From the NCBI RefSeq assembly GCF_945897465.1, contig NZ_CAMDFK010000005.1: 64,000 nucleotides of DNA; one strand, written 5' to 3'. The notes under the pieces were generated by a model, which worked only from the letters and a program-made list of their open reading frames with translations, did no database searches and had not been told where the DNA came from. Of the stretch, positions 20,478-42,596 are shown in pieces. The position numbers and the translations under genes are program-made. The DNA comes from Limnohabitans sp. Rim8 (lineage in GTDB: Bacteria; Pseudomonadota; Gammaproteobacteria; Burkholderiales; Burkholderiaceae_C). Each line of letters begins with the position of its first letter. Position 1 is the first letter of the stretch.

Positions 20478-21446
20478 ATGACCACCCCCCAATTCATCCA
20501 GCTGTACCAGCACAACGCCGCCGCCGTGGCGCAAGAACTCTTGCAGGGCCTGAGCGCCCCGCAGGCCTTCACCTCACCCAAATACCTGTACGACGCGCTG
20601 GGCTCGCGCTTGTTCGAGGCCATCACCGAGCTGCCAGAGTACGACCTGACCCGCACCGAGGCGCAACTCATGCGCCTGCACAGTGCGGACATGGCCCAGC
20701 ACCTGCCCAAAGGTGCTTGCTGGATCGACCTGGGCGCGGGCAACTGCGAAAAAGCCGGACGGCTGCTGGGCCCCCTGCAAGCGGGGCGTTATGTGGCGGT
20801 GGACATTTCGGTGGACTTTGTGCGCGAAGCCCTGGACAGCCTGCAGCGCCAGCACCCGGACTTGCCCATGACGGGCCTGGGCACCGATTTCTCGGGGGGC
20901 CTGGATTTGCCAGACGCCTTGAAACTGGACCCGGCGCAGCCACGCGTCTTGTTTTACCCGGGCTCGAGCATCGGTAATTTCACACCCGATCAGGCGTTAG
21001 GCTTTTTGCAAAGCCTGCACCGCGCTTGTGGCACAGCCCAAGGCAGCGGCTTGCTGATCGGGGTGGATTTGGTCAAAGACGCGGCCGAACTGGAAGCGGC
21101 CTATGACGACGCCCTGGGCGTGACCGCTGCCTTTGACCTGAACCTGCTGCTGCACATCAACCGCTTGGTGGGCAGCAACTTTGTGGTGCGCGACTGGCGG
21201 CACTTGTCGCGCTTCAACGCCGAGCGCTCGCGCGTGGAAATGCACCTGCAGGCGCGCCACGCGGTGCGCGTGCAGTGGCCAGGCGGCGAGCGGCTTTTTG
21301 CCAAAGGCGAGACCATCCACACAGAAAACGCCTGTAAGTGGACGGTGCCGAACTTCGAAGCCTTGCTGCACGCAGCAGGCTTTGCCCAGACCCGCGCCTG
21401 GACCGATCCGGCCCAGCGCTTTGCGGTGTTCTGGGCCGTGGCCTGA
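20478..21446 (+). CDS. egtD: L-histidine N-alpha-methyltransferase (hercynine synthase)
   Basis: It aligns along its full length, from memory, with mycobacterial EgtD. Matching segments include PKYLYDALGSRLFEAITELPEYDLTRTEAQ, DLGAGNCEK, GSSIGNFTP, AYDDALGVTAAFDLNLL and TENACKW. Confidence 0.85.
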   Translation: MTTPQFIQLYQHNAAAVAQELLQGLSAPQAFTSPKYLYDALGSRLFEAITELPEYDLTRTEAQLMRLHSADMAQHLPKGACWIDLGAGNCEKAGRLLGPLQAGRYVAVDISVDFVREALDSLQRQHPDLPMTGLGTDFSGGLDLPDALKLDPAQPRVLFYPGSSIGNFTPDQALGFLQSLHRACGTAQGSGLLIGVDLVKDAAELEAAYDDALGVTAAFDLNLLLHINRLVGSNFVVRDWRHLSRFNAERSRVEMHLQARHAVRVQWPGGERLFAKGETIHTENACKWTVPNFEALLHAAGFAQTRAWTDPAQRFAVFWAVA

Positions 21447-28214: not shown

Positions 28215-29498
28215 TCAAACCTTCACAGACCGGAAGCCTGCAAAAATATCGCGCCGCTCGGGCACAAAAAAATTGCGGTAACGCACATCCACCACATGGG
28301 CCGAGGTGGCAGCGCAGGCCCCGCGCAGCACACGGTGGCCATGCCACCAAGGCGCTGAATAGTCGCGGTACGGGTGCACCTCAAAGCCCGGGTAAGGTGC
28401 AAAATCACTGGCCGTCCACTCCCACACCTGACCCCACAAAAAACCTGGCTGCTGCGCGGCGCATTCCCATTCGGCTTCGGTGGGCAGACGCCGCCCTGCC
28501 CATTGGCACCAAGCCTGGGCATCGTGGGCATTCAGGTGCACCGCCGGGGCCTGCAGGTCGAGCAGCTGCCACTGGCCAAATTGCTGTGCTTGCCAAACGC
28601 CGTCAAGCCAGCGCACGTGGGGCGGCAGCGCATGGCCGGTGGCTTGCACAAAAGGCAAGTAACGCGCCCAGCTCACGGCTGCAGCATCGATCTCGAACGC
28701 ACCCAAGGCCTGCGGATGGGCCTGACGCTCGTTGTCAAAGGCAAACCCTGGCCCTGAGTAGCCCAGAGTGTTAACCTGTGCAGGAACATGGACGGACCCT
28801 GTCAGCCCCAAAGGCGCTTGTAACCCACGCGCATCACCTGATGCGGGTTCACGCCAGCACAAGGCCGGTGGCAAGGCCAGCCCCAGCGCTTGGGCCATGT
28901 AGACCGAGGCTTCGTTGTGCATGTCTTCGTGTTGCAAGACCAGTCGCCAAAAATAAATCGCCTCGTCTGAGGGCGGCCGCCCGCCTGCGTGCAGAGCCTC
29001 AAGGGCTTGTAAGTGGCCCAAGCTGCGCTGCAGCACCTGCGCCAAATAGGCCTGCGTCCCGGCCAGATCGGGCAAAGGCAAGGCCCAGCGGCTGTCATGC
29101 GCCACCTCGCTGGAGTTGTAGAGCGCATCGGCATCGGGCAGCCAAGAGTCGTCAAAAGCTTCGCCGGTGCTGGCACTGCGTGTGCCCCAATGGCGCTGCC
29201 GATTGCGCACCGTCCACCACTCCTGAAACCAGGCGATATGCCCCCATTCCCACAACGGGGGGTTCATGCCCGGCGAGGGCGGCACCGACAGATCGGGCAT
29301 GGCATTTTGCCAAGCCTGCATCAGGCCCAGCGTGCGGGCGCGGGTGCGTTGCAGGGCCTGGGCCAAAACCGCAGGGCCGGCAGTGCGCACAGCGCTGTGC
29401 ACGGGCCCCTGACAGCCCACAAAATAACGGTCAAATAAACGCCCCCCTGTTGCGCCTTGGAAAACCTGCCTTGACCCCACCGTGGTACTGCCATTCAT
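28215..29498 (-). CDS. senA: EgtB-like DinB/FGE-sulfatase-fold enzyme, selenoneine synthase-like
   Basis: The N-terminal DinB-like domain carries the three-His iron site pattern (WEWGHIAWF and LQHEDMHNE). The C-terminal FGE-sulfatase/EgtB-type domain shows GQVWEWTASDF.PYPGF and RVLRGACAATS. The start is uncertain: ATG at 29498 (MNGSTTV), with alternatives at 29513 or downstream GTGs. The senA label comes from context: selD, the glycosyltransferase and egtD. Confidence 0.7.
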   Translation of the reverse strand: MNGSTTVGSRQVFQGATGGRLFDRYFVGCQGPVHSAVRTAGPAVLAQALQRTRARTLGLMQAWQNAMPDLSVPPSPGMNPPLWEWGHIAWFQEWWTVRNRQRHWGTRSASTGEAFDDSWLPDADALYNSSEVAHDSRWALPLPDLAGTQAYLAQVLQRSLGHLQALEALHAGGRPPSDEAIYFWRLVLQHEDMHNEASVYMAQALGLALPPALCWREPASGDARGLQAPLGLTGSVHVPAQVNTLGYSGPGFAFDNERQAHPQALGAFEIDAAAVSWARYLPFVQATGHALPPHVRWLDGVWQAQQFGQWQLLDLQAPAVHLNAHDAQAWCQWAGRRLPTEAEWECAAQQPGFLWGQVWEWTASDFAPYPGFEVHPYRDYSAPWWHGHRVLRGACAATSAHVVDVRYRNFFVPERRDIFAGFRSVKV

Positions 29499-29511
29499 GT
29501 ATAAACCGCCC

Positions 29512-30486
29512 ATGCAAAAACTTCGTGTGGTGATTGTCAGCCCCGCCTTGGCTGATGCCAACAACGGCAACTGGCAAACTGCGCGACGCTGGCAACAGTT
29601 GTTGTCTGCGCATTCTGCCCGCATCGTGCGCCAGTGGCCCGACACGCAGGCAGATGATGACAACGTGATGCTGGCCCTGCACGCCCGCCGCTCGGCCGAC
29701 TCGGTGCAGGCCTGGCACGACCGGCACGGCCCGCGCGGCTTGGGCGTGGTGCTGACCGGCACCGACCTGTACCGCGACATCGCACACGACCCGCAGGCGC
29801 AGCGCTCGTTGGCTTTGGCGCACTCCTTGGTGGTCTTGCAAGGTCTGGGCGTGCAAAGTCTGCCCCCTGAGCACCAAGCCAAAGCCCGTGTGGTATTTCA
29901 GTCCACCGGCACGCGCAAGACTTTGCCCAAAACCGCACGCCATTTGCGCGTGGTGATGGTGGGCCATTTGCGCGAAGAAAAAGACCCGCTCACCCTGATG
30001 GCTGCCGCGCGACGGTTACCGCCAGACGCAGATGTGTTCATTGACCACATCGGCGCCGCACTCGACCCCGCCCTGGGCCAGGCCGCACAAGCCACCCAAG
30101 CGCAGTGTCCATATTACCGCTGGTTGGGGTCGGTGCCGCATGCGCAAACCCTGCAACGCATCCAGCGTGCGCACCTGTTGGTGCACTGCAGCCGCATGGA
30201 AGGCGGCGCCCATGTGCTGATGGAAGCGATTTGCAGCGGCACGCCGGTGCTGGCCTCGCGCATCGACGGCAATGTGGGACTGCTGGGCGAGGATTACGCG
30301 GGCTATTTTGAGCCGGGTGACGCGCAGGCCCTGGCCCATTTGTTACAAGCTTGCCGCTCACCGCAAAACGGCCCCAGCCTGATGGCACACTTGAGGGATC
30401 TGTGCGCCTTGCGTGCACCCTTGTTTGAACCTCAGGCCGAACGTGCCGCCTTGCTCCGCTGGGTGCAAGACCTCTGGACAATTTGA
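29512..30486 (+). CDS. senB: GT-B glycosyltransferase of the SelD-associated (TIGR04348-like) family, selenosugar synthase-like
   Basis: The N-terminus KLRVVIVSPALADANNGNWQTARRW is, as I recall, the hallmark of this family. The C-terminal part is a GT1-type domain (E..G.H.LMEAICSGTPVLAS). Its stop overlaps the selD-fusion ATG (TGATG). Confidence 0.7.
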   Translation: MQKLRVVIVSPALADANNGNWQTARRWQQLLSAHSARIVRQWPDTQADDDNVMLALHARRSADSVQAWHDRHGPRGLGVVLTGTDLYRDIAHDPQAQRSLALAHSLVVLQGLGVQSLPPEHQAKARVVFQSTGTRKTLPKTARHLRVVMVGHLREEKDPLTLMAAARRLPPDADVFIDHIGAALDPALGQAAQATQAQCPYYRWLGSVPHAQTLQRIQRAHLLVHCSRMEGGAHVLMEAICSGTPVLASRIDGNVGLLGEDYAGYFEPGDAQALAHLLQACRSPQNGPSLMAHLRDLCALRAPLFEPQAERAALLRWVQDLWTI

Positions 30487-32852
30487 TGAAACCATCTGCT
30501 CAACCTGTGCTGCGCGACCTGGTGCTGGTCGGAGGTGGCCACAGCCATGTGGGCGTGCTGCGCATGTTCGCCATGAAGCCCGAGCCGGGCGTGCGCATCA
30601 CACTGATCTGCACCGACATCGACACCCCCTACTCGGGCATGCTGCCCGGTTACATCGCGGGCCATTACAGCTTTGACGAGGTGCACATCGACTTGGGCCG
30701 CCTGTGCGCTTTTGTTGGTGCGCGGCTGTACCACGCTGCCGTGGTCGGCATCGACCGCCAAAATCAGAAGGTCATCTGCCAGAACCGACCGTCCGTGGCC
30801 TACGACCTGTTGTCCATCAACATCGGCTCGACACCCCAAGTGCGCCATGTCGAGGGAGCCCAATCGCTGGCTGTGCCGGTCAAGCCGATTGCACAATTCA
30901 ACCAACGCTGGTTGGCCCTGATGGACAAAGCCCGCCAGTGGCCCGTGCACCGGGGCCGCATGACGATTGCGGTGGTGGGCGCGGGCGCAGGTGGTGTAGA
31001 GCTGGTGCTGTCCATGCAATACCGCTTGCGCCACGAACTCAAGGCCTTGGGCCGCAGCCCTGAAGTCTTGAAATTCGTGTTGCTGACTTCGGGCGACACC
31101 ATTTTGCCCACCCACAACCCGGGTGTGCGAAAGCGCTTTGCCCAAGTGCTGCAAGAGCGTAACGTCGAGGTGCACACCTCGGCCGAAGTGATCCAGGTCT
31201 CGCCCGGTTGCCTGCACACGCGTGACGGGCGCACTTTCGATGCAGACGAAACCATGTGGGTGACCCAAGCCGGTGGCCCCAGTTGGCTGCAAAGCACCGG
31301 CCTGGCACTGGACAAGCAGGGCTGCATCCTGGTGCACCCGCAGCTGCAAACCCTGAACGATCCGCTGGTGTTTGCAGCGGGTGACATTGCTTCGTTTGTG
31401 GACCGCCCGCTGGAAAAAGCGGGCGTGTTTGCCGTGCGCATGGCCAAACCCTTGGCCGAGAATCTGCGCCGCAGCCTGCGCGGCCAAAGTCTGCTGGCCT
31501 ACGACCCGCAACGCCATTGGCTGGCCCTCATTTCCACGGGCAACCGATTCGCTGTGGCCTCACGCGGCTCACTGGGCTTTGACGGGGCCTGGGTCTGGCG
31601 CTGGAAGGACCGCATTGACCGGGAATTCATGCGCCGCTTCACCGAATTCCCGGCCATGCCCGGGGCAGTCAGCCCTGCCCAAACCGGGGCCCATGTGCGC
31701 GAAGCCGTCCAGGCCATGGGCCAGCTGCTCAAAGACATCCAAGCCCAAGGCAAGGGGCATACCACCCAGCTGAACCTGACTTCAGAGGAGTCGCTGCAGG
31801 CCATCTCGGCCATTGCGATGCGCTGCGGGGGCTGCGGAGCGAAAGTAGGCGCTAACATCCTGTCGCGCGCACTCGGCAGCTTGCAACCCGTCGAGCGCCC
31901 GGACGTGCTGATCGGCCTGCATTCGCCAGACGACGCGGCCGTGGTGCGTGTGCCACCAGGCATGGCCGTGGTGCAGACGGTGGATTTTTTCCGGGCCTTC
32001 ATCGACGACCCCTATGTGTTTGGCAAAGTGGCCGCCAACCACGCACTGGGCGATATCTTTGCCATGGGGGCCGAACCCCAAACCGCCACCGCCGTGGTCA
32101 CCGTGCCGCCGGGCCTAGAGAGCAAGGTGGAAGACCTGCTGACCCAAATGATGGGCGGTGCAATCGAGGTGCTGAACGCCGCAGGCTGCGCCTTGGTGGG
32201 CGGGCACACGGGCGAGGGTGCCGAGCTGGCCCTGGGATTTGCCATCAACGGGCTGATCGACGAGAAGATGGACAGCGTGATGCGCAAGGGCGGCATGCAG
32301 CCCGGTGATGTGCTGCTGCTGACCAAACCGATTGGCACCGGCACCCTGTTTGCCGCGCATGCGCGCTACGCCGCCAAGGGCCGCTGGATCGATGCAGCGC
32401 TCAAATCGATGGTGCTGTCCAACCAATCAGGCGCTGAAATTTTGCGCAATCACGGCGCCACCGCCTGCACCGACCTGACCGGCTTTGGCCTGCTGGGCCA
32501 CTTAGTGGAGATGACCCGGCCGTCCGGCGTGGACGCAGAACTGACCATGAGCACCCTGCCCCTGCTGGATGGCGCGGTGGACTGCGTGCAAGCGGGCATC
32601 GTCAGCTCTTTGCAGCCCGCCAATGTGCGCCTGCGTCGCGCCCTGCGCAACGCCGACGAGTTCGTGGGCGACTCCCGCTACCCCCTGCTGTTCGACCCGC
32701 AAACCGCAGGCGGTCTGTTGGCCAGTGTGCCGGCAGCGCAAGCGGCCGCTTGCGTGCAAGCGCTCAAGGCTGCGGGGTACCCCCACACCGCCATCATTGG
32801 CCGCATCACCGCGCAAAGCGAGGCCATCGAACCTGTGCTGCTGAAAACCTGA
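30486..32852 (+). CDS. senC: bifunctional FAD/NAD(P)H pyridine-nucleotide-disulfide oxidoreductase / selenide,water dikinase
   Basis: The N-terminal ~370 aa carry LVLVGGGHSHV and IAVVGAGAGGVE dinucleotide folds and FAAGDIA. The C-terminal ~370 aa is SelD, with RCGGCGAKVG (Cys/Lys loop), DDAAVV, VQTVDFF, HALGDIFAMGAEP and GGHTGEG. There is no in-frame TGA. Confidence 0.85.
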   Translation: MKPSAQPVLRDLVLVGGGHSHVGVLRMFAMKPEPGVRITLICTDIDTPYSGMLPGYIAGHYSFDEVHIDLGRLCAFVGARLYHAAVVGIDRQNQKVICQNRPSVAYDLLSINIGSTPQVRHVEGAQSLAVPVKPIAQFNQRWLALMDKARQWPVHRGRMTIAVVGAGAGGVELVLSMQYRLRHELKALGRSPEVLKFVLLTSGDTILPTHNPGVRKRFAQVLQERNVEVHTSAEVIQVSPGCLHTRDGRTFDADETMWVTQAGGPSWLQSTGLALDKQGCILVHPQLQTLNDPLVFAAGDIASFVDRPLEKAGVFAVRMAKPLAENLRRSLRGQSLLAYDPQRHWLALISTGNRFAVASRGSLGFDGAWVWRWKDRIDREFMRRFTEFPAMPGAVSPAQTGAHVREAVQAMGQLLKDIQAQGKGHTTQLNLTSEESLQAISAIAMRCGGCGAKVGANILSRALGSLQPVERPDVLIGLHSPDDAAVVRVPPGMAVVQTVDFFRAFIDDPYVFGKVAANHALGDIFAMGAEPQTATAVVTVPPGLESKVEDLLTQMMGGAIEVLNAAGCALVGGHTGEGAELALGFAINGLIDEKMDSVMRKGGMQPGDVLLLTKPIGTGTLFAAHARYAAKGRWIDAALKSMVLSNQSGAEILRNHGATACTDLTGFGLLGHLVEMTRPSGVDAELTMSTLPLLDGAVDCVQAGIVSSLQPANVRLRRALRNADEFVGDSRYPLLFDPQTAGGLLASVPAAQAAACVQALKAAGYPHTAIIGRITAQSEAIEPVLLKT

Positions 32853-32875
32853 ACGCCTCCGAGATCAGGAACCCT

Positions 32876-33544
32876 ATGCCTACCGAACAACTCATGCTCA
32901 ACGCTGACCTGAGCCAGCGCTGCATCATCCACAGCCCCTCGCTCGACTGGGTGGACTCACCCGCCTCGGGCGTGTCGCGCCGCATGCTCGAGCGCGACGG
33001 CGGCGAAGTGGCACGCGCCACGTCCATCGTGCGTTATGCGCCAGGCTCGGCCTTTGCCAGCCACACCCACGGCGGGGGCGAAGAAATTTTGGTGCTCGAA
33101 GGCACGCTGCACGACGAGCATGGGGTTTATGGCCCCGGCACTTACATCAAGAACCCAGTGGGCAGCTCGCACGCGCCATCCTCGCCCGATGGATGCACTT
33201 TGTTTGTGAAGCTGCGCCATTTGGACGCACGTGACGACGAACGCGTGGTCATCGACACACGTCGCAGCGAATGGCGACAAGGCATGGTCGAGGGCTTGAA
33301 GGTCTTGCCACTGAACACCTTCGAGACCCAAAACACCGCCCTGGTGCGCTGGGCACCTCAAACGTTTTTCAACCCGCACCGGCATTGGGGTGGCGAAGAA
33401 ATCTTGGTGGTCGACGGCGTGTTCTCGGACGAGCACGGTGACTACCCCGCAGGCAGCTGGCTGCGCAGCCCCCACATGAGCCAGCACCAACCGTTCAGCC
33501 GCGAAGGCTGCTTGATTCTGGTGAAAACCGGGCACTTGATTTGA
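32876..33544 (+). CDS. bicupin protein (ChrR C-terminal-like cupin family)
   Basis: Two cupin metal motifs, HTHGGGEEILVLEG and HRHWGGEEILVVDG. AGGA RBS. Lies 23 nt after the selD-fusion stop. Confidence 0.7.
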   Translation: MPTEQLMLNADLSQRCIIHSPSLDWVDSPASGVSRRMLERDGGEVARATSIVRYAPGSAFASHTHGGGEEILVLEGTLHDEHGVYGPGTYIKNPVGSSHAPSSPDGCTLFVKLRHLDARDDERVVIDTRRSEWRQGMVEGLKVLPLNTFETQNTALVRWAPQTFFNPHRHWGGEEILVVDGVFSDEHGDYPAGSWLRSPHMSQHQPFSREGCLILVKTGHLI

Positions 33545-33546
33545 AC

Positions 33547-34257
33547 ATGACATCACCCACACCCCCCATTCGCGCCGTCGTCTTTGATGCCTACGGCACG
33601 CTGTTCGATGTGTACTCCATCGGCGCTTTGGCCGAAACACTCTACCCTGGCCAGGGCGCGGCACTGTCGGTGCTGTGGCGCGACAAGCAGATCGAGTACA
33701 CACGCCTGATCTCGCTGAGTGACCCCAGCCCCCAAGGCAGTCGCCACTACCAATCGTTTTGGGACATCACGCGCGCGTCGCTGCGTTATGCGCTGGCGCG
33801 TTTGGGCTTGGTGCACAGCGTGGCCAATGAAGACGCGCTGATGGCTCAATACGCCGAGCTCACGGCCTTCCCGGAAAACCTGGGCGTGCTGCAAGCCTTG
33901 CGCCAACGCGGCGTGGCGACAGCGATTTTGTCCAACGGCAGCCCCGAGATGCTGCAGTCGGCCGTGCACAGTGCAGGCATGAGCGACTTGCTGGATGCAG
34001 TTTTGTCGGTGGACAGCGTGCGCCAGTTCAAAACCACGCCCACCAGCTACCAACTGGTACAAGACCACCTTGGCTTGGCACCCGCGGATGTGTTGTTTGT
34101 CTCGAGCAACGCCTGGGATGCGCTGGGCGCTACTTGGTTTGGCTTCACCACCCTGTGGATCAACCGCCAGGGTCAACCGCCAGAGGCCATGGGTCCGGCG
34201 CCTCACCACACGGGCCGCGACCTGAGCGAAGTGCTGAAGGTGTTGGGCCTGCACTGA
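33547..34257 (+). CDS. haloacid dehalogenase type II (HAD superfamily)
   Basis: Nucleophile motif AVVFDAYGTLFDV, then WRDKQIEYTRL, SNG and SSNAWD, all characteristic of L-2-haloacid dehalogenases. It starts 2 nt after the cupin stop. Confidence 0.8.
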   Translation: MTSPTPPIRAVVFDAYGTLFDVYSIGALAETLYPGQGAALSVLWRDKQIEYTRLISLSDPSPQGSRHYQSFWDITRASLRYALARLGLVHSVANEDALMAQYAELTAFPENLGVLQALRQRGVATAILSNGSPEMLQSAVHSAGMSDLLDAVLSVDSVRQFKTTPTSYQLVQDHLGLAPADVLFVSSNAWDALGATWFGFTTLWINRQGQPPEAMGPAPHHTGRDLSEVLKVLGLH

Positions 34258-34265
34258 ACACGCAT

Positions 34266-35750
34266 TCAGTGCCCGATGATGAGGTCCTTGCCGTCTTTGT
34301 CGTGCACCGCAAACTTGTCCACCAGCGTGGCACTGGCTTCGTTCATGCCGCGCACCTCGACCTCGGCACCTTCGCGGCGGAACTTGAAGACCACCTTGTC
34401 CAAGGCGCTCACAGCGGTGATGTCCCAGAAGTGGGCACGGCTCACGTCGATCACCACACGCGGCACGACCTCGTCAAAGTCGAACGCGTCGATGAAGCGA
34501 TCAGCACTGGCAAAAAACACCTGACCCACCACCTCGTAGGTGTGGGTGTCTGGGGTGCTGGTCGAGTGCACCAGCAAAATCCGACCGATCTTGTGGGCGA
34601 AGAAAAAGCCCGACAACAACACGCCGGTCAGCACGCCTTGCGCCAAGTCGTGGGTGAACACCGTCACCACCACCGTGGCCAGCATGACCACACTGGAGCT
34701 CTTGGGGTGTTCGCGCAGGTTCTTGAACGAGGCCCAGTTGAAGGTGCCGATCGACACCATGATCATCACCGCCACCAAAGCGGCCATGGGAATTTGGCTG
34801 ACCCACTCGCCCAAAAACACCACCAAGATCAGCAGCACCACACCGGCCACGAGCGTGGACAAACGGCCGCGCCCGCCGGATTTCACGTTGATCACCGACT
34901 GGCCAATCATGGCGCAACCGGCCATGCCGCCGATGAAGCCGGTGGCGATGTTGGCCACGCCTTGGCCCACACACTCGCGGCTCTTATCGCTTTGGGTGTC
35001 GGTCATGTCGTCGACGATGGTCGCGGTCATGAGCGACTCCAGCAAACCCACCACCATGAGGGTGGCCGAGTAGGGCAGGATGATCATGAGCGTGTCCCAG
35101 TTCAGCGGCACATCGGGCAGCAAGAACACGGGCAAGCTGCTGGGCAACTCGCCCATGTCACCGACGGTGCGGATGTCCAGACCCATCCCGATCGAGAAAG
35201 CGGTCAACACCACGATGGTCACCAGCGGCGAAGGCACGGCCTTGGTGAGGTAGGGCAGGCCGTAGATGATGGCCAATCCCACGGCGGTCATGGCGTAGAC
35301 ATGCCAAGTCACGCCCACGGTGCTGGGGTTGAGCTCGGGCAACTGCGCCATGAAAATCAAAATCGCCAGCGCATTCACAAAACCGGTGACCACCGAACGC
35401 GACACAAAGCGCATCAACTGCCCCAGGTGCAGCCAGCCTGCGATCACCTGCAACACGCCCGTGAGCACGGTGGCGGCCAAGAGGTATTGCAAGCCGTGGT
35501 CTTTGACCAGCGACGCGATCACCAGCGCCATGGCGCCCGTGGCCGCCGAGATCATGCCAGGGCGCCCGCCCGCGAACGCAATGATGGTGGCGATCGAAAA
35601 CGAGGCGTAAAGCCCCACCTTGGGGTCCACGCCCGCGATGATCGAAAACGCAATCGCCTCGGGGATGAGTGCCAGCGCGACCACCAGGCCGGCGAGGACA
35701 TCGTTGCGGGCATTAAATAGCCAAATTTGGCGAAAAGAATGGCGTGTCAT
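34266..35750 (-). CDS. SulP family inorganic anion transporter with C-terminal STAS domain
   Basis: N-terminal [25 protein letters not shown]. The polytopic core is followed by a STAS domain ([14 protein letters not shown]). Start ATG at 35750, alternative at 35786. Confidence 0.85.
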
Positions 35751-35972
35751 GCTGATCAGGCCGCTTGGCTGATCAGCCTGGGCCATGGTTCTAAATGAAA
35801 GGAGTTTGAAGAGGCAGGCCTGAGACGCTGCGCACAGTGGCCAATAAGGCGAGCAGGGGATTGCAGATCTGATGTGCTGCGCCGCGCAGCAGGTTCTATG
35901 CCGAAGAAGTGTAAGCCATGCGCAGGCTCTGCTTTTTAAAATACACGGCATCACCACGCCACACTGCTGCCC

Positions 35973-38847: not shown

Positions 38848-39291
38848 TCAGTACTGCTTGTAAGGCAAGAACTTGCCCGACAGCACCACGTTCACGCGGT
38901 CGCCCTTGGGGTCGGGCTGGCGCACGATGTCCATGCTGAAGTCGATGGCGCTCATGATGCCGTCGCCAAACTCTTCGTGGATCAGTTCCTTGATGGTGGT
39001 GCCGTAGACGCTCACGATTTCGTACCAGCGGTAGATCAGCGGGTCGGTGGGCACTTGGCTGGGCAGCGAGCCTTTGTAGGGAACCACTTGCAGCCACTTG
39101 ATCTCTTCAGCCGTCAGGCCAAAGATCTTGCCGATGATTTTGGCTTGCTTGGCGTCAAAGGTCATTTGGCCCAGGCACCCGGCGGTGACCCATTCTTTGG
39201 ACAGGCCGACTTTCTCGGCAACGTCGCTCCACTTGATGCCTTTGGCCACTTTGGTGGAGATGATTTTTTCGGTGACTTCTAAACGGTTCAT
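38848..39291 (-). CDS. cynS: cyanate hydratase (cyanase)
   Basis: 147 aa, running from MNRLEVTEKIISTKVAKGIKWSDVAEKVG to the C-terminal catalytic domain SAIDFSMD..GDRV..LSGKFLPY. Confidence 0.92.
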   Translation of the reverse strand: MNRLEVTEKIISTKVAKGIKWSDVAEKVGLSKEWVTAGCLGQMTFDAKQAKIIGKIFGLTAEEIKWLQVVPYKGSLPSQVPTDPLIYRWYEIVSVYGTTIKELIHEEFGDGIMSAIDFSMDIVRQPDPKGDRVNVVLSGKFLPYKQY

Positions 39292-39337
39292 GAAAGACCT
39301 CTTGAGGGGAGTTGAAGATAAATCTGGAAAAAAAGAA

Positions 39338-40132
39338 TCAATGGGCTTTGGCGCGTGACACCAAAAAGTCAACGATGTGGTTGCGCATGTCGTAGTAGCC
39401 CGGCAGGTGATGCAGTTGGGCGCGTGTGCGCTCGCGCGGCAACGGGTTGACCACCACTTCGGCCAAACCACCGGGCACATAGCTGCCACCCGACTCGTTG
39501 CCGTTGCTCATGAGCAAGATGCGGTCGGACAGCAAAATCGCCTCGTCCACGTCGTGTGTGATCATGAACACCGTCTGCTGCGTCTGGCGCACGATGCCCA
39601 TCAGCTCGTCTTGGATGGTGCCGCGTGTGAGGGCATCGAGTGCGCCAAAAGGCTCGTCGAGCAAGAGCATCTTGGGCTGGATGGCAAAGGCACGGGCAAT
39701 GCCCACGCGCTGCTTCATGCCGCCCGACAGCTGGCTGGGTTTCTTGTCGATGGCGTGCAGCAAGCCGACCATGCCGACGTGCTTTTCTACATGCAGATTG
39801 ACCTGATGGGTCTTCCAATCGGGCCACTTGGACCGAACAGCAAACGCGATGTTTTGCCGCACCGTAAGCCATGGCATGAGCGCGTGGCTTTGGAACACCA
39901 CACCGCGCTCCAGGCTCGGGCCTGCGATCACTCGCCCGTCCATGAAGGCGTGGCCTTCAGTGGCCGTGTCCAGGCCCGCGAGCACGTTCAAGATGGTGGT
40001 CTTACCGCAGCCCGAGTGGCCGATGATGCAAACAAACTCGCCCTTGTCGATGGTGAAAGACACGTCCGAAAACACCGGCTTGTCGCTTTGGTAGGCCTTG
40101 CCCAGTTTTTCGATTTTGAGGAAAGCGTTCAT
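39338..40132 (-). CDS. NitT/TauT-family (nitrate/cyanate/sulfonate) ABC transporter ATP-binding protein
   Basis: Walker A GHSGCGKTT, signature LSGGMKQRV and Walker B LLLDEPFGALD. Start ATG at 40132 (MNAFLKIEKL), alternative at 40213. Confidence 0.85.
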   Translation of the reverse strand: MNAFLKIEKLGKAYQSDKPVFSDVSFTIDKGEFVCIIGHSGCGKTTILNVLAGLDTATEGHAFMDGRVIAGPSLERGVVFQSHALMPWLTVRQNIAFAVRSKWPDWKTHQVNLHVEKHVGMVGLLHAIDKKPSQLSGGMKQRVGIARAFAIQPKMLLLDEPFGALDALTRGTIQDELMGIVRQTQQTVFMITHDVDEAILLSDRILLMSNGNESGGSYVPGGLAEVVVNPLPRERTRAQLHHLPGYYDMRNHIVDFLVSRAKAH

Positions 40133-40202
40133 GGCTTGGGCCTTGGGTTGCGGGGCAAAAATTTCTGTGGGCAAAGGCGCGATCAGCTCGCGCTCGCTGG
40201 TG

Positions 40203-41069
40203 TCACTCCACATAGGTCACCGCCTTTTGCACCTGGGCAAACGCGAGGTCCAGCAACATGCCCACCACACCAATCACCAGCACTGCAAAAATCACATTCA
40301 CCAGCGACAGGTTGTTCCACTCGTTCCACACAAAGTAACCCACGCCCGTGCCGCCCACCAGCATCTCAGCGGCCACAATCACCAGCCACGCGATGCCCAT
40401 GCTGATGCGCATGCCGGTGACGATGGTGGGCGCTGCGGCGGGCAAGATGACCAAGAAGGCTTTGCGCAGCGGTTGCACTTCCAGCGTGCTGGCCACGTTG
40501 AGCCATTCGCGTTTGACTGCAGCCACACCAAAGGCGGTGTTGATGAGCATGGGCCAGACCGAGCAGATGAAGATGACAAAGATGCCACTGACCTCCGAGT
40601 CTTTGAGCGTGTAGAGCGCCAGCGGCATCCAGGCCAGTGGGCTGATGGGCTTGAGCACTTGGATGAAGGGGTCAAACGCTTTGCGCATGAGCGGTGACAT
40701 GCCAATCATGAAACCGACTGGCAGCGCCACCAACACGGCCAGGAAAAAGCCCAGCGCCACGCGCCCCAGCGAATGCCCCAGCTGGATGCCGATGCCTTTG
40801 TCGTTGGGGCCTTTGTCATAAAACGGATCGGCCAAATGCCCCAGCATGGCTTTGCCCACTTCCAAGGGCGGCGGAAAGCCTGTGGTTTTGACGGCCCCCG
40901 GGTCCTTGCCCATCATCTTCTGGTACTCGATCTCTTCGGCCGTCATGCCCGCCTTGGCCGCGCCTGCCACCGAGGGTGCGGTGGCTGAGAGCTGCCACGC
41001 TCCCAGAAAGACCAGGAACATGAGCAGCGAGACCAAGGCGGCCCGGGCATTGAGGTGCATGGTTTTCAT
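40203..41069 (-). CDS. NitT/TauT-family ABC transporter permease
   Basis: Polytopic, with the EAA-like loop and NrtB/CynB-like sequence. Confidence 0.85.
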   Translation of the reverse strand: MKTMHLNARAALVSLLMFLVFLGAWQLSATAPSVAGAAKAGMTAEEIEYQKMMGKDPGAVKTTGFPPPLEVGKAMLGHLADPFYDKGPNDKGIGIQLGHSLGRVALGFFLAVLVALPVGFMIGMSPLMRKAFDPFIQVLKPISPLAWMPLALYTLKDSEVSGIFVIFICSVWPMLINTAFGVAAVKREWLNVASTLEVQPLRKAFLVILPAAAPTIVTGMRISMGIAWLVIVAAEMLVGGTGVGYFVWNEWNNLSLVNVIFAVLVIGVVGMLLDLAFAQVQKAVTYVE

Positions 41070-41074
41070 CTGCC

Positions 41075-42481
41075 TTAGCCCATCTTGTTGATCGCAAAGC
41101 TCTTGAGGTAGGCGTCGGGCTTGGCCGGGTCAAACTCTTTGCCCATGATCTTGTACTTGGGGTAAGGCGTGGTGGCGGCAAAGTCGTGGCCGAGCTCCTT
41201 CATGTGCTTGCGGGCGTCAGTGATCAAGAACACCTTCTCTGCGATTTGTTTGTAGTTCACATCGCCCTTTACATAACCCCAGCGCTTCATTTGAGTGAGC
41301 ATCCACACCGCCATGCTTTGCCAAGGCATCGGGTCAAAGTCGGCGCGGTCGGGCACGTTTTGCACCTTGCCCAAGCCGTCAGCAAACTTGCCCGTGAGCA
41401 CTTGGGCAATCACCGCCTCGGGCTGGTTCAGGTACTGCGCTGGCGAGATGACTTTGGATATCAGCTCCCGGTTGCCGGGCTGACGAGCCATGGCCGCGGC
41501 CGTGAGCACCGCGCGGTACAACGCGGCAAATGTGTTGGGGTTCTTCTGGATGAACTCGGTGCTGGTACCAAAAGCGCAGCAAGGATGGCCATTCCACAAG
41601 TCTTTGGTCAGCACATGGATGAAGCCAACCTCGTCGTAAACCGCACGTTGGTTGAAAGGATCGGGTCCCAAGAAACCATCGATGTTGCCCGAGCGCAGGT
41701 TGGCCACCATCTCTGGTGGTGGCACCACGCGGATTTGCACATCGGTGTCGGGGTTGATGCCGTTTTCGGCCAGGTAGTAGCGCAGCAAGAAGTTGTGCAT
41801 CGAGTAATCAAAGGGCACGGCAAACTTGAAGCCCTTCCAGTTCTTCGGATCGCGGTTGTTCTTGTGCTTCATGGCCAGCGTGATGGCCTGGCCGTTGATG
41901 TTCTGGATAGTGGCCACGTTCATGGGCGTGGCGTTCGCGCCCAGACCCATGCTGATGGCCAGGGGCATGGGCGAGAGGAAGTGGGTCGCGTCGTATTCCT
42001 TGTTGATCATCTTGTCGCGGATCAAGGCCCAGCCTGCGGTCTTGGTCACTTCGACGTTCAGGCCTTGCTTTTGGTAAAAGCCCAGCGGCTCGGCCATGAT
42101 GAGCGGTGTAGCGCAGGTGATCGGGATAAAGCCGATCTTGAGGTTGGTTTTTTCCAAGGGGCCTTTGCTTTGGGCCAAGGCTTGCAAGCTGGCCACAGGC
42201 AACACACTGGCGATGGCGGCCATGGCCGTTTTCTTGCCCACCGCACGCAAGAACATGCGGCGCTCTTGGTCCTGTGGAAACAAGGCCTTGACCAAGGTGG
42301 CTTCGATGAATTCCTGGCTGTAGGCTTCAAACTCGGCGGTCTCGGAACGGGCACGCAGCTGGGCGGCGGCGGCATCGGCGGCCACCTCGGCGTGGTGGTC
42401 GGCTGGCGAATGATCACGTCCGCAGCTGCACTTGAGCATCAGGGGGCGGTCGGCGTTGTACGGGTCAAAAAATTCAGACAT
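41075..42481 (-). CDS. CmpA/NrtA-family ABC transporter substrate-binding protein (nitrate/cyanate type)
   Basis: NrtA-like body (LKIGFIPITCATPL, HPCCAF). A Tat-like RRMFLRAVG motif is preceded by an N-terminal extension of about 80 aa that contains CSCGRDHSPADHH. Start ATG at 42481. Confidence 0.85.
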   Translation of the reverse strand: MSEFFDPYNADRPLMLKCSCGRDHSPADHHAEVAADAAAAQLRARSETAEFEAYSQEFIEATLVKALFPQDQERRMFLRAVGKKTAMAAIASVLPVASLQALAQSKGPLEKTNLKIGFIPITCATPLIMAEPLGFYQKQGLNVEVTKTAGWALIRDKMINKEYDATHFLSPMPLAISMGLGANATPMNVATIQNINGQAITLAMKHKNNRDPKNWKGFKFAVPFDYSMHNFLLRYYLAENGINPDTDVQIRVVPPPEMVANLRSGNIDGFLGPDPFNQRAVYDEVGFIHVLTKDLWNGHPCCAFGTSTEFIQKNPNTFAALYRAVLTAAAMARQPGNRELISKVISPAQYLNQPEAVIAQVLTGKFADGLGKVQNVPDRADFDPMPWQSMAVWMLTQMKRWGYVKGDVNYKQIAEKVFLITDARKHMKELGHDFAATTPYPKYKIMGKEFDPAKPDAYLKSFAINKMG

Positions 42482-42596
42482 GGCAACCTCGCTTTGTTGA
42501 AGATGCGCATATCTATGCAAGCTGTGGGCCAGAAAACCTTGGTAACGGGCCATCGGGAGGGCGCATCTTCATTTCGCGAAGCACTTGTCGATGCGG

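Follow-up and report, generated by a model that had tools for sequence, protein, structure and literature searches.

A flavoprotein–SelD fusion as sole SelD and senC of a selenoneine cluster in Limnohabitans sp. Rim8, with a possible role of the flavoprotein in selenium reduction

A 64,000-nucleotide stretch of the genome of Limnohabitans sp. Rim8 (contig NZ_CAMDFK010000005.1), referred to here at its full length as the window, contains a gene in which a flavoprotein related to type-II NADH:quinone oxidoreductase (NDH-2) is joined to selenide, water dikinase (SelD). To judge from its sequence, the product is a true SelD fused to a flavoprotein of the NDH-2 fold, with intact motifs for binding flavin adenine dinucleotide (FAD) and NAD(P)H. 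It is close to certain that this is a bifunctional Ndh-SelD and that it would provide selenophosphate for SenB and SenA in selenoneine synthesis, and for SelU. The best explanation overall, and one that we consider probable, is that it acts as the only SelD of its genome and as the SenC of a selenoneine (sen) cluster, with its N-terminal domain supplying reduced selenium at the SelD loop. The fusion and the idea of a reductive supply date back nearly two decades. What is added here is the senC role, the position as sole SelD in a genome lacking machinery for selenocysteine (Sec), a candidate redox pair on the SelD loop, and a tie between free-standing members of the flavoprotein family and clusters containing ArsS. 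The gene and its parts are located as follows.

30486..32852, plus strand: fused flavoprotein–SelD gene, senC of the cluster and sole selD of the genome; 788 codons plus stop
30516..31640, plus strand: N-terminal NDH-2-like FAD/NAD(P)H flavoprotein domain; residues 11-385, matched by TIGR03169
31641..31817, plus strand: interdomain linker; residues 386-444, mostly helical by prediction, at lower confidence
31818..32849, plus strand: SelD (selenide, water dikinase) domain with AIRS and AIRS_C; residues 445-788
31824..31844, plus strand: glycine-rich catalytic loop of SelD, C447-G-G-C450-G-A-K453, placed by alignment to 3u0o

The longest version of the open reading frame begins at TTG 30483, and starting at ATG 30486 gives a protein of 788 amino acids, as in the closest homologues. 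Pfam assigns Pyr_redox_2 to residues 11-306 (84 bits), AIRS (PF00586) to residues 482-590 (74 bits) and AIRS_C (PF02769) to residues 605-778 (62 bits). The NCBIfam model TIGR03169 (Nterm_to_SelD) matches residues 11-385 with 498.5 bits against a cut-off of 310, N-terminal to SelD within the single frame, and the selD equivalog model TIGR00476 matches residues 445-752 (298.9 bits, cut-off 125). The score with TIGR04369 (fusion_not_SelD) is 470.1 bits, below the cut-off of 700. A first-pass annotation, made from the DNA letters, had proposed a flavoprotein with two dinucleotide folds followed by a complete Cys-type SelD. This architecture is borne out by Pfam, NCBIfam and Foldseek, and the motifs quoted for it are present at residues 16-22 (GGGHSHV), 164-172 (VGAGAGGVE), 296-302 (FAAGDIA) and 446-455 (RCGGCGAKVG). 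Homologues that are 80-93% identical, from Limnohabitans and Hydrogenophaga, are annotated as selenide, water dikinase SelD. Among the matches listed, 120 of 120 close homologues combine PF07992, PF00586 and PF02769, and of the 150 top representatives at 50% identity, 144 reach at least 698 amino acids; both counts speak for coupling of the two halves. Conservation of cysteines and motifs was assessed in an alignment drawn from these 150, of which 30 were omitted (those outside about 700-815 amino acids, plus a few unlisted); it comprises the fused protein and 120 full-length fused homologues of 38-54% identity (n = 121).

The flavoprotein half is marked by the motifs GGGHSH (residues 16-21), TPYSGMLPG (47-55), GAGAGG (165-170), GD (299-300) and WKDRIDREF (373-381); those at 16-21 and 165-170 are of the GxGxxG type. 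Dinucleotide-binding positions that are invariant or nearly so among the fused homologues include G16-G18, G165, G167 and E172, and G299 and D300. A signature specific to the family is kept to the same degree across the 121 sequences (H19, H21, Y49-S50-G51, K374 and D378), and the motifs GGGH[SA]H, PYSGMLPG and WKDxIDRxF are common to fused and free-standing TIGR03169 forms. Sequence matches of the domain in the PDB include the NDH-2 structure 4nwz at 7.5e-20 and, much more weakly, the sulfide:quinone reductase (SQR) structure 3hyv at 2.3e-4. NDH-2 family models are absent from the NCBIfam matches of the fused protein.

Conserved cysteines are missing from this half. Residues 1-445 contain no conserved cysteine column among the 121 fused homologues, the highest being C74 (Cys in 72 and Ala in 41 of the 121), and no cysteine of the N-terminal domain is invariant across 17 aligned fused and free-standing TIGR03169 sequences. 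SQR-like and glutathione-reductase-like chemistries were both rejected for this reason. Membership of the SQR family is also contradicted by the NF049943 score of 32.6 bits, against a cut-off of 525. A disulfide reductase of the glutathione reductase, thioredoxin reductase or MerA type was likewise rejected, since residues 1-445 contain neither CxxC nor CxxxxC and have no Pyr_redox_dim match; the NCBIfam models for MerA and lipoamide dehydrogenase give about 23 bits with the fused protein, compared with cut-offs above 400. The first-pass annotation had likened the domain to NDH-2 or SQR, and the likeness holds for NDH-2 in both sequence and fold but not for the chemistry of SQR.

The catalytic loop of the SelD half provides the cysteines that the flavoprotein half lacks. 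Escherichia coli SelD (3u0o) aligns to this half at 3e-47, with C450 on Cys17 and K453 on Lys20, which we take to be the catalytic residues of the E. coli enzyme. Both C450 and K453 are kept in at least 90% of the 121 fused homologues. The same alignment pairs C447 with Gly14 and has Ala in the fused protein where E. coli has Cys19. C447 is thus an extra cysteine and gives the CxxC typical of fused SelDs; Cys is found at C447 in 116/121 and at C450 in 115/121 of the fused homologues. This pair (RCGGCGAK) forms the sole CxxC of the 788-residue protein, compared with the loop GGGCGCK in the classical, unfused SenC-type SelD of G055, a genome from the window's own family. The first-pass annotation had read Cys rather than Sec in the loop and had correctly seen neither a CxxC nor a CxxxxC pair in the N-terminal domain, but it overlooked C447/C450. 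As far as the alignments indicate, the SelD-loop pair is the only conserved thiol pair available to the N-terminal domain. A CxxC in the SelD active site has been reported in all Ndh-SelD fusions, whereas <5% of SelDs with a single domain have one (Zhang et al. 2008, PLoS Genet, PMC2398784).

A structure of the whole chain was predicted by AlphaFold2 from the 121 sequences, with a mean predicted local distance difference test score (pLDDT) of 94.6 and a predicted template-modelling score (pTM) of 0.94. The linker, at around residues 390-450, has pLDDT values of 58-81 in 10-residue blocks, with helices predicted at 397-420 and 434-444. In Foldseek comparisons, the first half matches NDH-2 (4nwz, 5kmq), the YjlD model 9a63_B and YutJ with target template-modelling (TM) scores of 0.87-0.90 over about 385 columns; with NDH-2 the root-mean-square deviation is 2.2-2.6 Å at 18-24% identity. 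The second half matches the SelD structures 2yye, 3u0o and 2zau (target TM 0.76-0.84). No solved chain in the Foldseek list spans both halves, the top query TM being 0.45. The pTM of 0.94 implies that the arrangement of the two domains is confidently fixed in the model.

The genomic location of the fused gene indicates the pathway that it serves. Three further genes of selenoneine synthesis are found in the window:

29482..30486, plus strand: senB, selenosugar synthase; TIGR04348, 442.8 bits against a cut-off of 300; likely start ATG 29497 or 29512
28215..29402, minus strand: senA, selenoneine synthase, an EgtB homologue; NF041186, 448 bits against a cut-off of 420; divergent from senB
20478..21446, plus strand: egtD, hercynine synthase, which supplies the substrate of SenA; TIGR03438, 342.7 bits against a cut-off of 290.9

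The TGA stop codon of senB (30484-30486) overlaps the ATG of the fused selD by 1 nucleotide and, by sequence and context, the fused selD is translationally coupled to senB. The senABC genes were defined in the preprint of Kayrouz et al. (10.1101/2022.04.13.486033), and the fused gene is, as expected of SenC, a SelD homologue that overlaps senB and adjoins senA. Together with the nearby egtD, which lies 6.8 kb upstream past a block of TRAP-transporter and oxidoreductase genes, these features identify the fused gene as the senC of a selenoneine cluster. The listed senA reading frame extends to 29882, but the NF041186 match opens at residue 167 of that frame, which makes a GTG near 29390-29420 the probable true start. 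This setting was missing from the first-pass annotation, and it is the senA and senB neighbours that make the fused gene senC.

Other genes adjoin the cluster. Downstream of the fused selD, at 32750-34257 on the plus strand, are a ChrR-like cupin reading frame, weakly matched (62.8 bits; cut-off 124.5), and a type II HAD hydrolase (218 bits). A type II HAD is also found downstream of senC in G055 (L026:8550-9245), and the gene may belong to sen clusters as a conserved accessory. A SulP-family permease follows at 34266-35957 on the minus strand (TIGR00815, 289.5 bits, below the cut-off of 380); a putative selenate transporter has been described near many sen clusters (Kayrouz et al., 10.1101/2022.04.13.486033).

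The host genome (3.02 Mb in 48 contigs, 99.5% complete) has a single selD match over the cut-off, which is the fused gene. In the same genome there is no match for SelA and none over the cut-off for SelB, and tRNA-Sec is absent from the 41 tRNAs identified by ARAGORN. With these three components not found, a function related to Sec was rejected for this genome. SelU, the tRNA 2-selenouridine synthase, is encoded on another contig (351 bits). As the sole SelD of the genome, the fused enzyme must serve selenoneine as well as selenouridine synthesis. ArsS (TIGR04167), which is associated with relatives of the N-terminal domain in other genomes, has no match in the window's own genome.

The wider occurrence of these genes was assessed in one set of 301 genomes of the window's order, using five family models and tallies checked by script. 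The set includes G000 and one unpublished genome, G023. TIGR03169 scores over its cut-off in 90 of the 301, in 16 as the fused form (frames of at least 734 amino acids) and in 74 as a free-standing form (about 350-660 amino acids). The other 211 are referred to as the rest, in which G023 is counted; it is positive for selD, SenB and ArsS.

selD: fused 16/16; free-standing 70/74; rest 144/211
SenB: fused 15/16; free-standing 42/74; rest 53/211
ArsS: fused 14/16; free-standing 69/74; rest 23/211
SelU: fused 16/16 (search confined to the fused genomes)
SelA: fused 8/16 (search confined to the fused genomes)

The link to selenium holds without the fusion, because selD accompanies the free-standing form in all but four of its 74 genomes, against about two-thirds of the rest. 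Fused forms are the highest-scoring members of TIGR03169 (at least 475 bits), and selD is matched just once in 14 of the 16 fused genomes. Among the 15 that are SenB-positive, senB adjoins the fused gene in just three (G000, G004 and G187). These counts point to the fused protein as the general SelD of these organisms, with placement as senC being one of several arrangements. TIGR03169-like matches of 264-325 bits also occur within frames of 800-895 amino acids in three genomes (G262:C208:4963-5985, G215:C80:5721-6812 and G098:C77:48951-50042). These genomes also have a classical SelD, and the long frames may be of the TIGR04369 fusion_not_SelD type.

Free-standing TIGR03169 proteins are about 370 amino acids long, end about 5-15 residues past WKDxIDRxF, and have the same invariant residues as the fused domain. 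For the analysis of their neighbourhoods, 20 loci (L012-L031) were fetched and two genes on each side were taken in 17 of them, with L020, L025 and L027 left out. Neighbours in 8 of the 17 include a family 2 glycosyltransferase (GT2/TIGR04283), DUF2064/TIGR04282 or DUF3047; both TIGR04283 and TIGR04282 are named ‘arsenosugar biosynthesis glycosyltransferase’ by NCBIfam. ArsS recurs near the free-standing genes, for example at L028:1287-2255 and L024:9310-10332. Further example loci of ArsS arsenosugar-type clusters are L014:3996-5307 and L017:7133-9220, and DUF547 is also found alongside. A comparison of coordinates places TIGR03169 and ArsS within 10 kb on one contig in at least 28 genomes, and of the 23 ArsS-positive genomes in the rest, 13 have a TIGR03169-like match near the cut-off. 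No mention of a link between TIGR03169 and ArsS was found in the literature searched. G055 carries a free-standing copy (318.8 bits) at a distance of 1.6 kb from the classical senC. The association of the free-standing form with ArsS suggests that the action of the module may extend to metalloids at large, with the preparation of reduced metalloid nucleophiles. A separate observation is that a fusion of about 715-780 amino acids, combining a DedA/VTT membrane domain with a MerA/glutathione-reductase-like flavoprotein, recurs beside free-standing TIGR03169 (L012:1373-3664, L013:9962-12310, L014:883-3111, L018:9366-11546, L022:10278-12497, L028:2395-4542 and L026:11662-13992), and in G055 it stands beside the sen cluster.

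These observations can be combined in a mechanism for the fused enzyme. The N-terminal domain would bind FAD and NAD(P)H in the manner of NDH-2, with no redox cysteines of its own, and would pass reducing equivalents from NAD(P)H to selenium at or beside the mobile SelD loop C447-x-x-C450. The redox partner is placed on the SelD side because no cysteine column of the N-terminal domain is conserved, while C447 and C450 are. Thiol–selenium adducts are known substrates of flavoprotein disulfide reductases. Here, the selenium could come from a selenotrisulfide or selenylsulfide derived from selenite or a thiol–Se adduct, or from Se(0). In the most economical version, selenium would be bound by the C447/C450 pair in selenotrisulfide or selenylsulfide form, for reduction in place by the flavin. 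HSe- or a perselenide of Cys450 would in this way form on the spot, adjacent to the ATP site, with no diffusion through the oxic cytoplasm. Selenophosphate synthesis would thus become NAD(P)H-driven, with selenide shielded from oxygen in an aerobic freshwater bacterium. A reductive supply of selenium to SelD as the role of the N-terminal domain fits the comparative evidence, and we rate it as slightly better than an even prospect. The first-pass annotation had likewise suggested an NAD(P)H-dependent reductase that could generate or channel selenide for SelD. That the electrons go to the CxxC loop in particular is a more tentative proposal, which we would not expect to hold in that exact form. 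Equally speculative is the broader idea that TIGR03169 is a dedicated metalloid-reductase module, in which the flavin of the fused form would reduce C447/C450-bound selenium in cis and the free-standing form would supply reduced arsenic in ArsS clusters.

Several points weigh against a role in selenium reduction. The NDH-2-like fold normally reduces quinone. SenC chemistry as such needs no flavoprotein, because the unfused SenC of Variovorax paradoxus works in vitro with Na2Se and dithiothreitol (DTT). The predicted structure speaks to a fixed domain arrangement and not to the distance from the flavin to the CxxC loop. The open-access literature searched yielded no biochemical work on the fusion or on TIGR03169. 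Furthermore, the tightest genomic partner of TIGR03169 in the order is ArsS rather than a selenium gene (83/90 positive genomes compared with 23/211 others), although the genomes are related, and these and the other counts are therefore non-independent and their ratios are descriptive rather than statistical tests. This last association is the basis of a different explanation, in which the domain is a general flavoprotein for metalloid or electron supply that works chiefly with the ArsS arsenosugar system. Its task there might be to convert pentavalent methylarsenicals into As(III) substrate, or to deliver electrons to the radical-SAM cluster. Its fusion to SelD would then be explained not by selenium reduction itself but by a requirement for reducing power common to both systems, or by ArsS being, in certain species, a selenoprotein. 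The high frequency of ArsS in both free-standing and fused genomes, the genomes in which the two genes lie no more than 10 kb apart, the presence of TIGR04283, TIGR04282 and ArsS among the neighbours, and the identical invariant residues of the free and fused forms are all in keeping with it. However, the window's genome has the fusion and no ArsS match, so that the domain there must serve something else. The top scores of the fused forms and their fusion-specific SelD CxxC also point to adaptation directed at SelD, and the arsenosugar label comes from NCBIfam names only. Overall, we regard this explanation as unlikely.

Two other roles for the flavoprotein are less likely. It could be a true type-II NADH:quinone oxidoreductase, with the fusion serving to anchor SelD at the membrane or in the respiratory chain, or to sense redox state, and with no electrons passing to selenium. 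The solved structures closest to it, by sequence and by fold, are indeed those of NDH-2, but identity to them is low, the family has an invariant signature of its own in fused and free forms, no NDH-2 model appears among the NCBIfam matches, and the free members end shortly after WKDxIDRxF. A respiratory role would also leave the co-occurrence with selenium and arsenic genes unexplained, and we consider it quite improbable. Alternatively, the domain could work in the oxidative direction, like SQR, converting excess toxic selenide to Se(0) and so buffering the substrate of SelD. Weak similarities to 3hyv and NF049943 are consistent with this, and SQR structures appear in the list of similar folds, including one (3sz0) solved with selenide. 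Such chemistry needs conserved redox cysteines, though, and the cysteine counts in both alignments and the distance of the NF049943 score from its cut-off make it very improbable indeed. The reading that we prefer remains that of an Ndh-SelD in the position of SenC, with the flavoprotein providing reduced selenium to the SelD loop.

Elsewhere in the window, the cyanase gene cynS adjoins genes for an ABC transporter of the nitrate/cyanate type (38848-42553, minus strand); this is an ordinary arrangement that is unrelated to the fused gene.

The source of reduced selenium for SelD in vivo is an old question, and the Ndh-SelD fusion can be seen as a natural experiment that points at an answer. 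The gene described here offers a clean test case, as it is the only SelD, is wired into the selenoneine pathway with its easy read-out, and lies in a genome with no selenoprotein machinery. If the metalloid-reductase module is real, the in vivo donor of selenide for SelD would be identified in aerobic aquatic bacteria and some protists, and selenophosphate synthesis would be NAD(P)H-driven, free of added thiol and oxygen-tolerant.

The Ndh-SelD fusion has been described mostly in aquatic bacteria, and in some lower eukaryotes (Zhang et al. 2008, PLoS Genet, PMC2398784), and in the GOS ocean metagenome ∼40% of Cys-type SelDs were of the Ndh-SelD type (PMC2398784). Reduction of a selenium compound by the flavoprotein on behalf of SelD was already proposed at that time (Zhang et al. 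2008, BMC Genomics, PMC2432076). A later survey found Ndh-SelD to be the commonest SelD fusion, always N-terminal and scattered over bacteria and protists; all genomes with the fusion had Sec machinery, and a role in Sec synthesis was predicted (Mariotti et al. 2015, PMC4561486). The portions of two reviews that were covered (PMC9312934 and PMC13188914) add nothing further on the fusion. In the selenoneine field, V. paradoxus SenC was characterized with Na2Se and DTT (Kayrouz et al., 10.1101/2022.04.13.486033); the words ‘oxidoreductase’ and ‘fused’ are absent from the main text of that preprint, the supplementary cluster figure being outside the scope of this statement. In a study of SenC engineering (PMC11929427), the mutated residues are numbered only up to 316, which implies that V. 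paradoxus SenC is a single-domain protein.

In comparison with the published Ndh-SelD (also NADH-SPS) fusions, the protein described here has the same order of domains (a COG1252/NDH-2-like flavoprotein, then a Cys-type SelD) and the same CxxC in the loop, and its aquatic host fits the reported aquatic enrichment. There is no structural difference from them, and context alone differs, in that the gene is a senC here. The statement of Mariotti et al. 2015 that all fusion genomes have Sec machinery contrasts with the present sample, where 8 of the 16 fused genomes (G000 and 15 others, G004 to G295), the window's own among the eight, lack a SelA match. Among oxidoreductases, NDH-2 of Caldalkalibacillus thermarum (4nwz) and YjlD of Bacillus subtilis share the two-Rossmann FAD/NAD(P)H fold and, likewise, have no redox cysteines in the flavin domain; the differences are the low identity (18-24%), a conserved signature specific to the N-terminal domain, and its joining to SelD. 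The oxidoreductase/SelD-related fusions of TIGR04369 have the same two-part layout, but the C-terminal half of the protein in the window passes the true SelD model. The likeness to the V. paradoxus senABC cluster lies in a SelD reading frame that overlaps senB, a divergent senA and an egtD nearby, with selenophosphate presumed to feed SenB. In V. paradoxus SenC is a single-domain protein, whereas the fused protein has an extension of about 440 residues, consisting of the flavoprotein and linker, and a CxxC in its catalytic loop.

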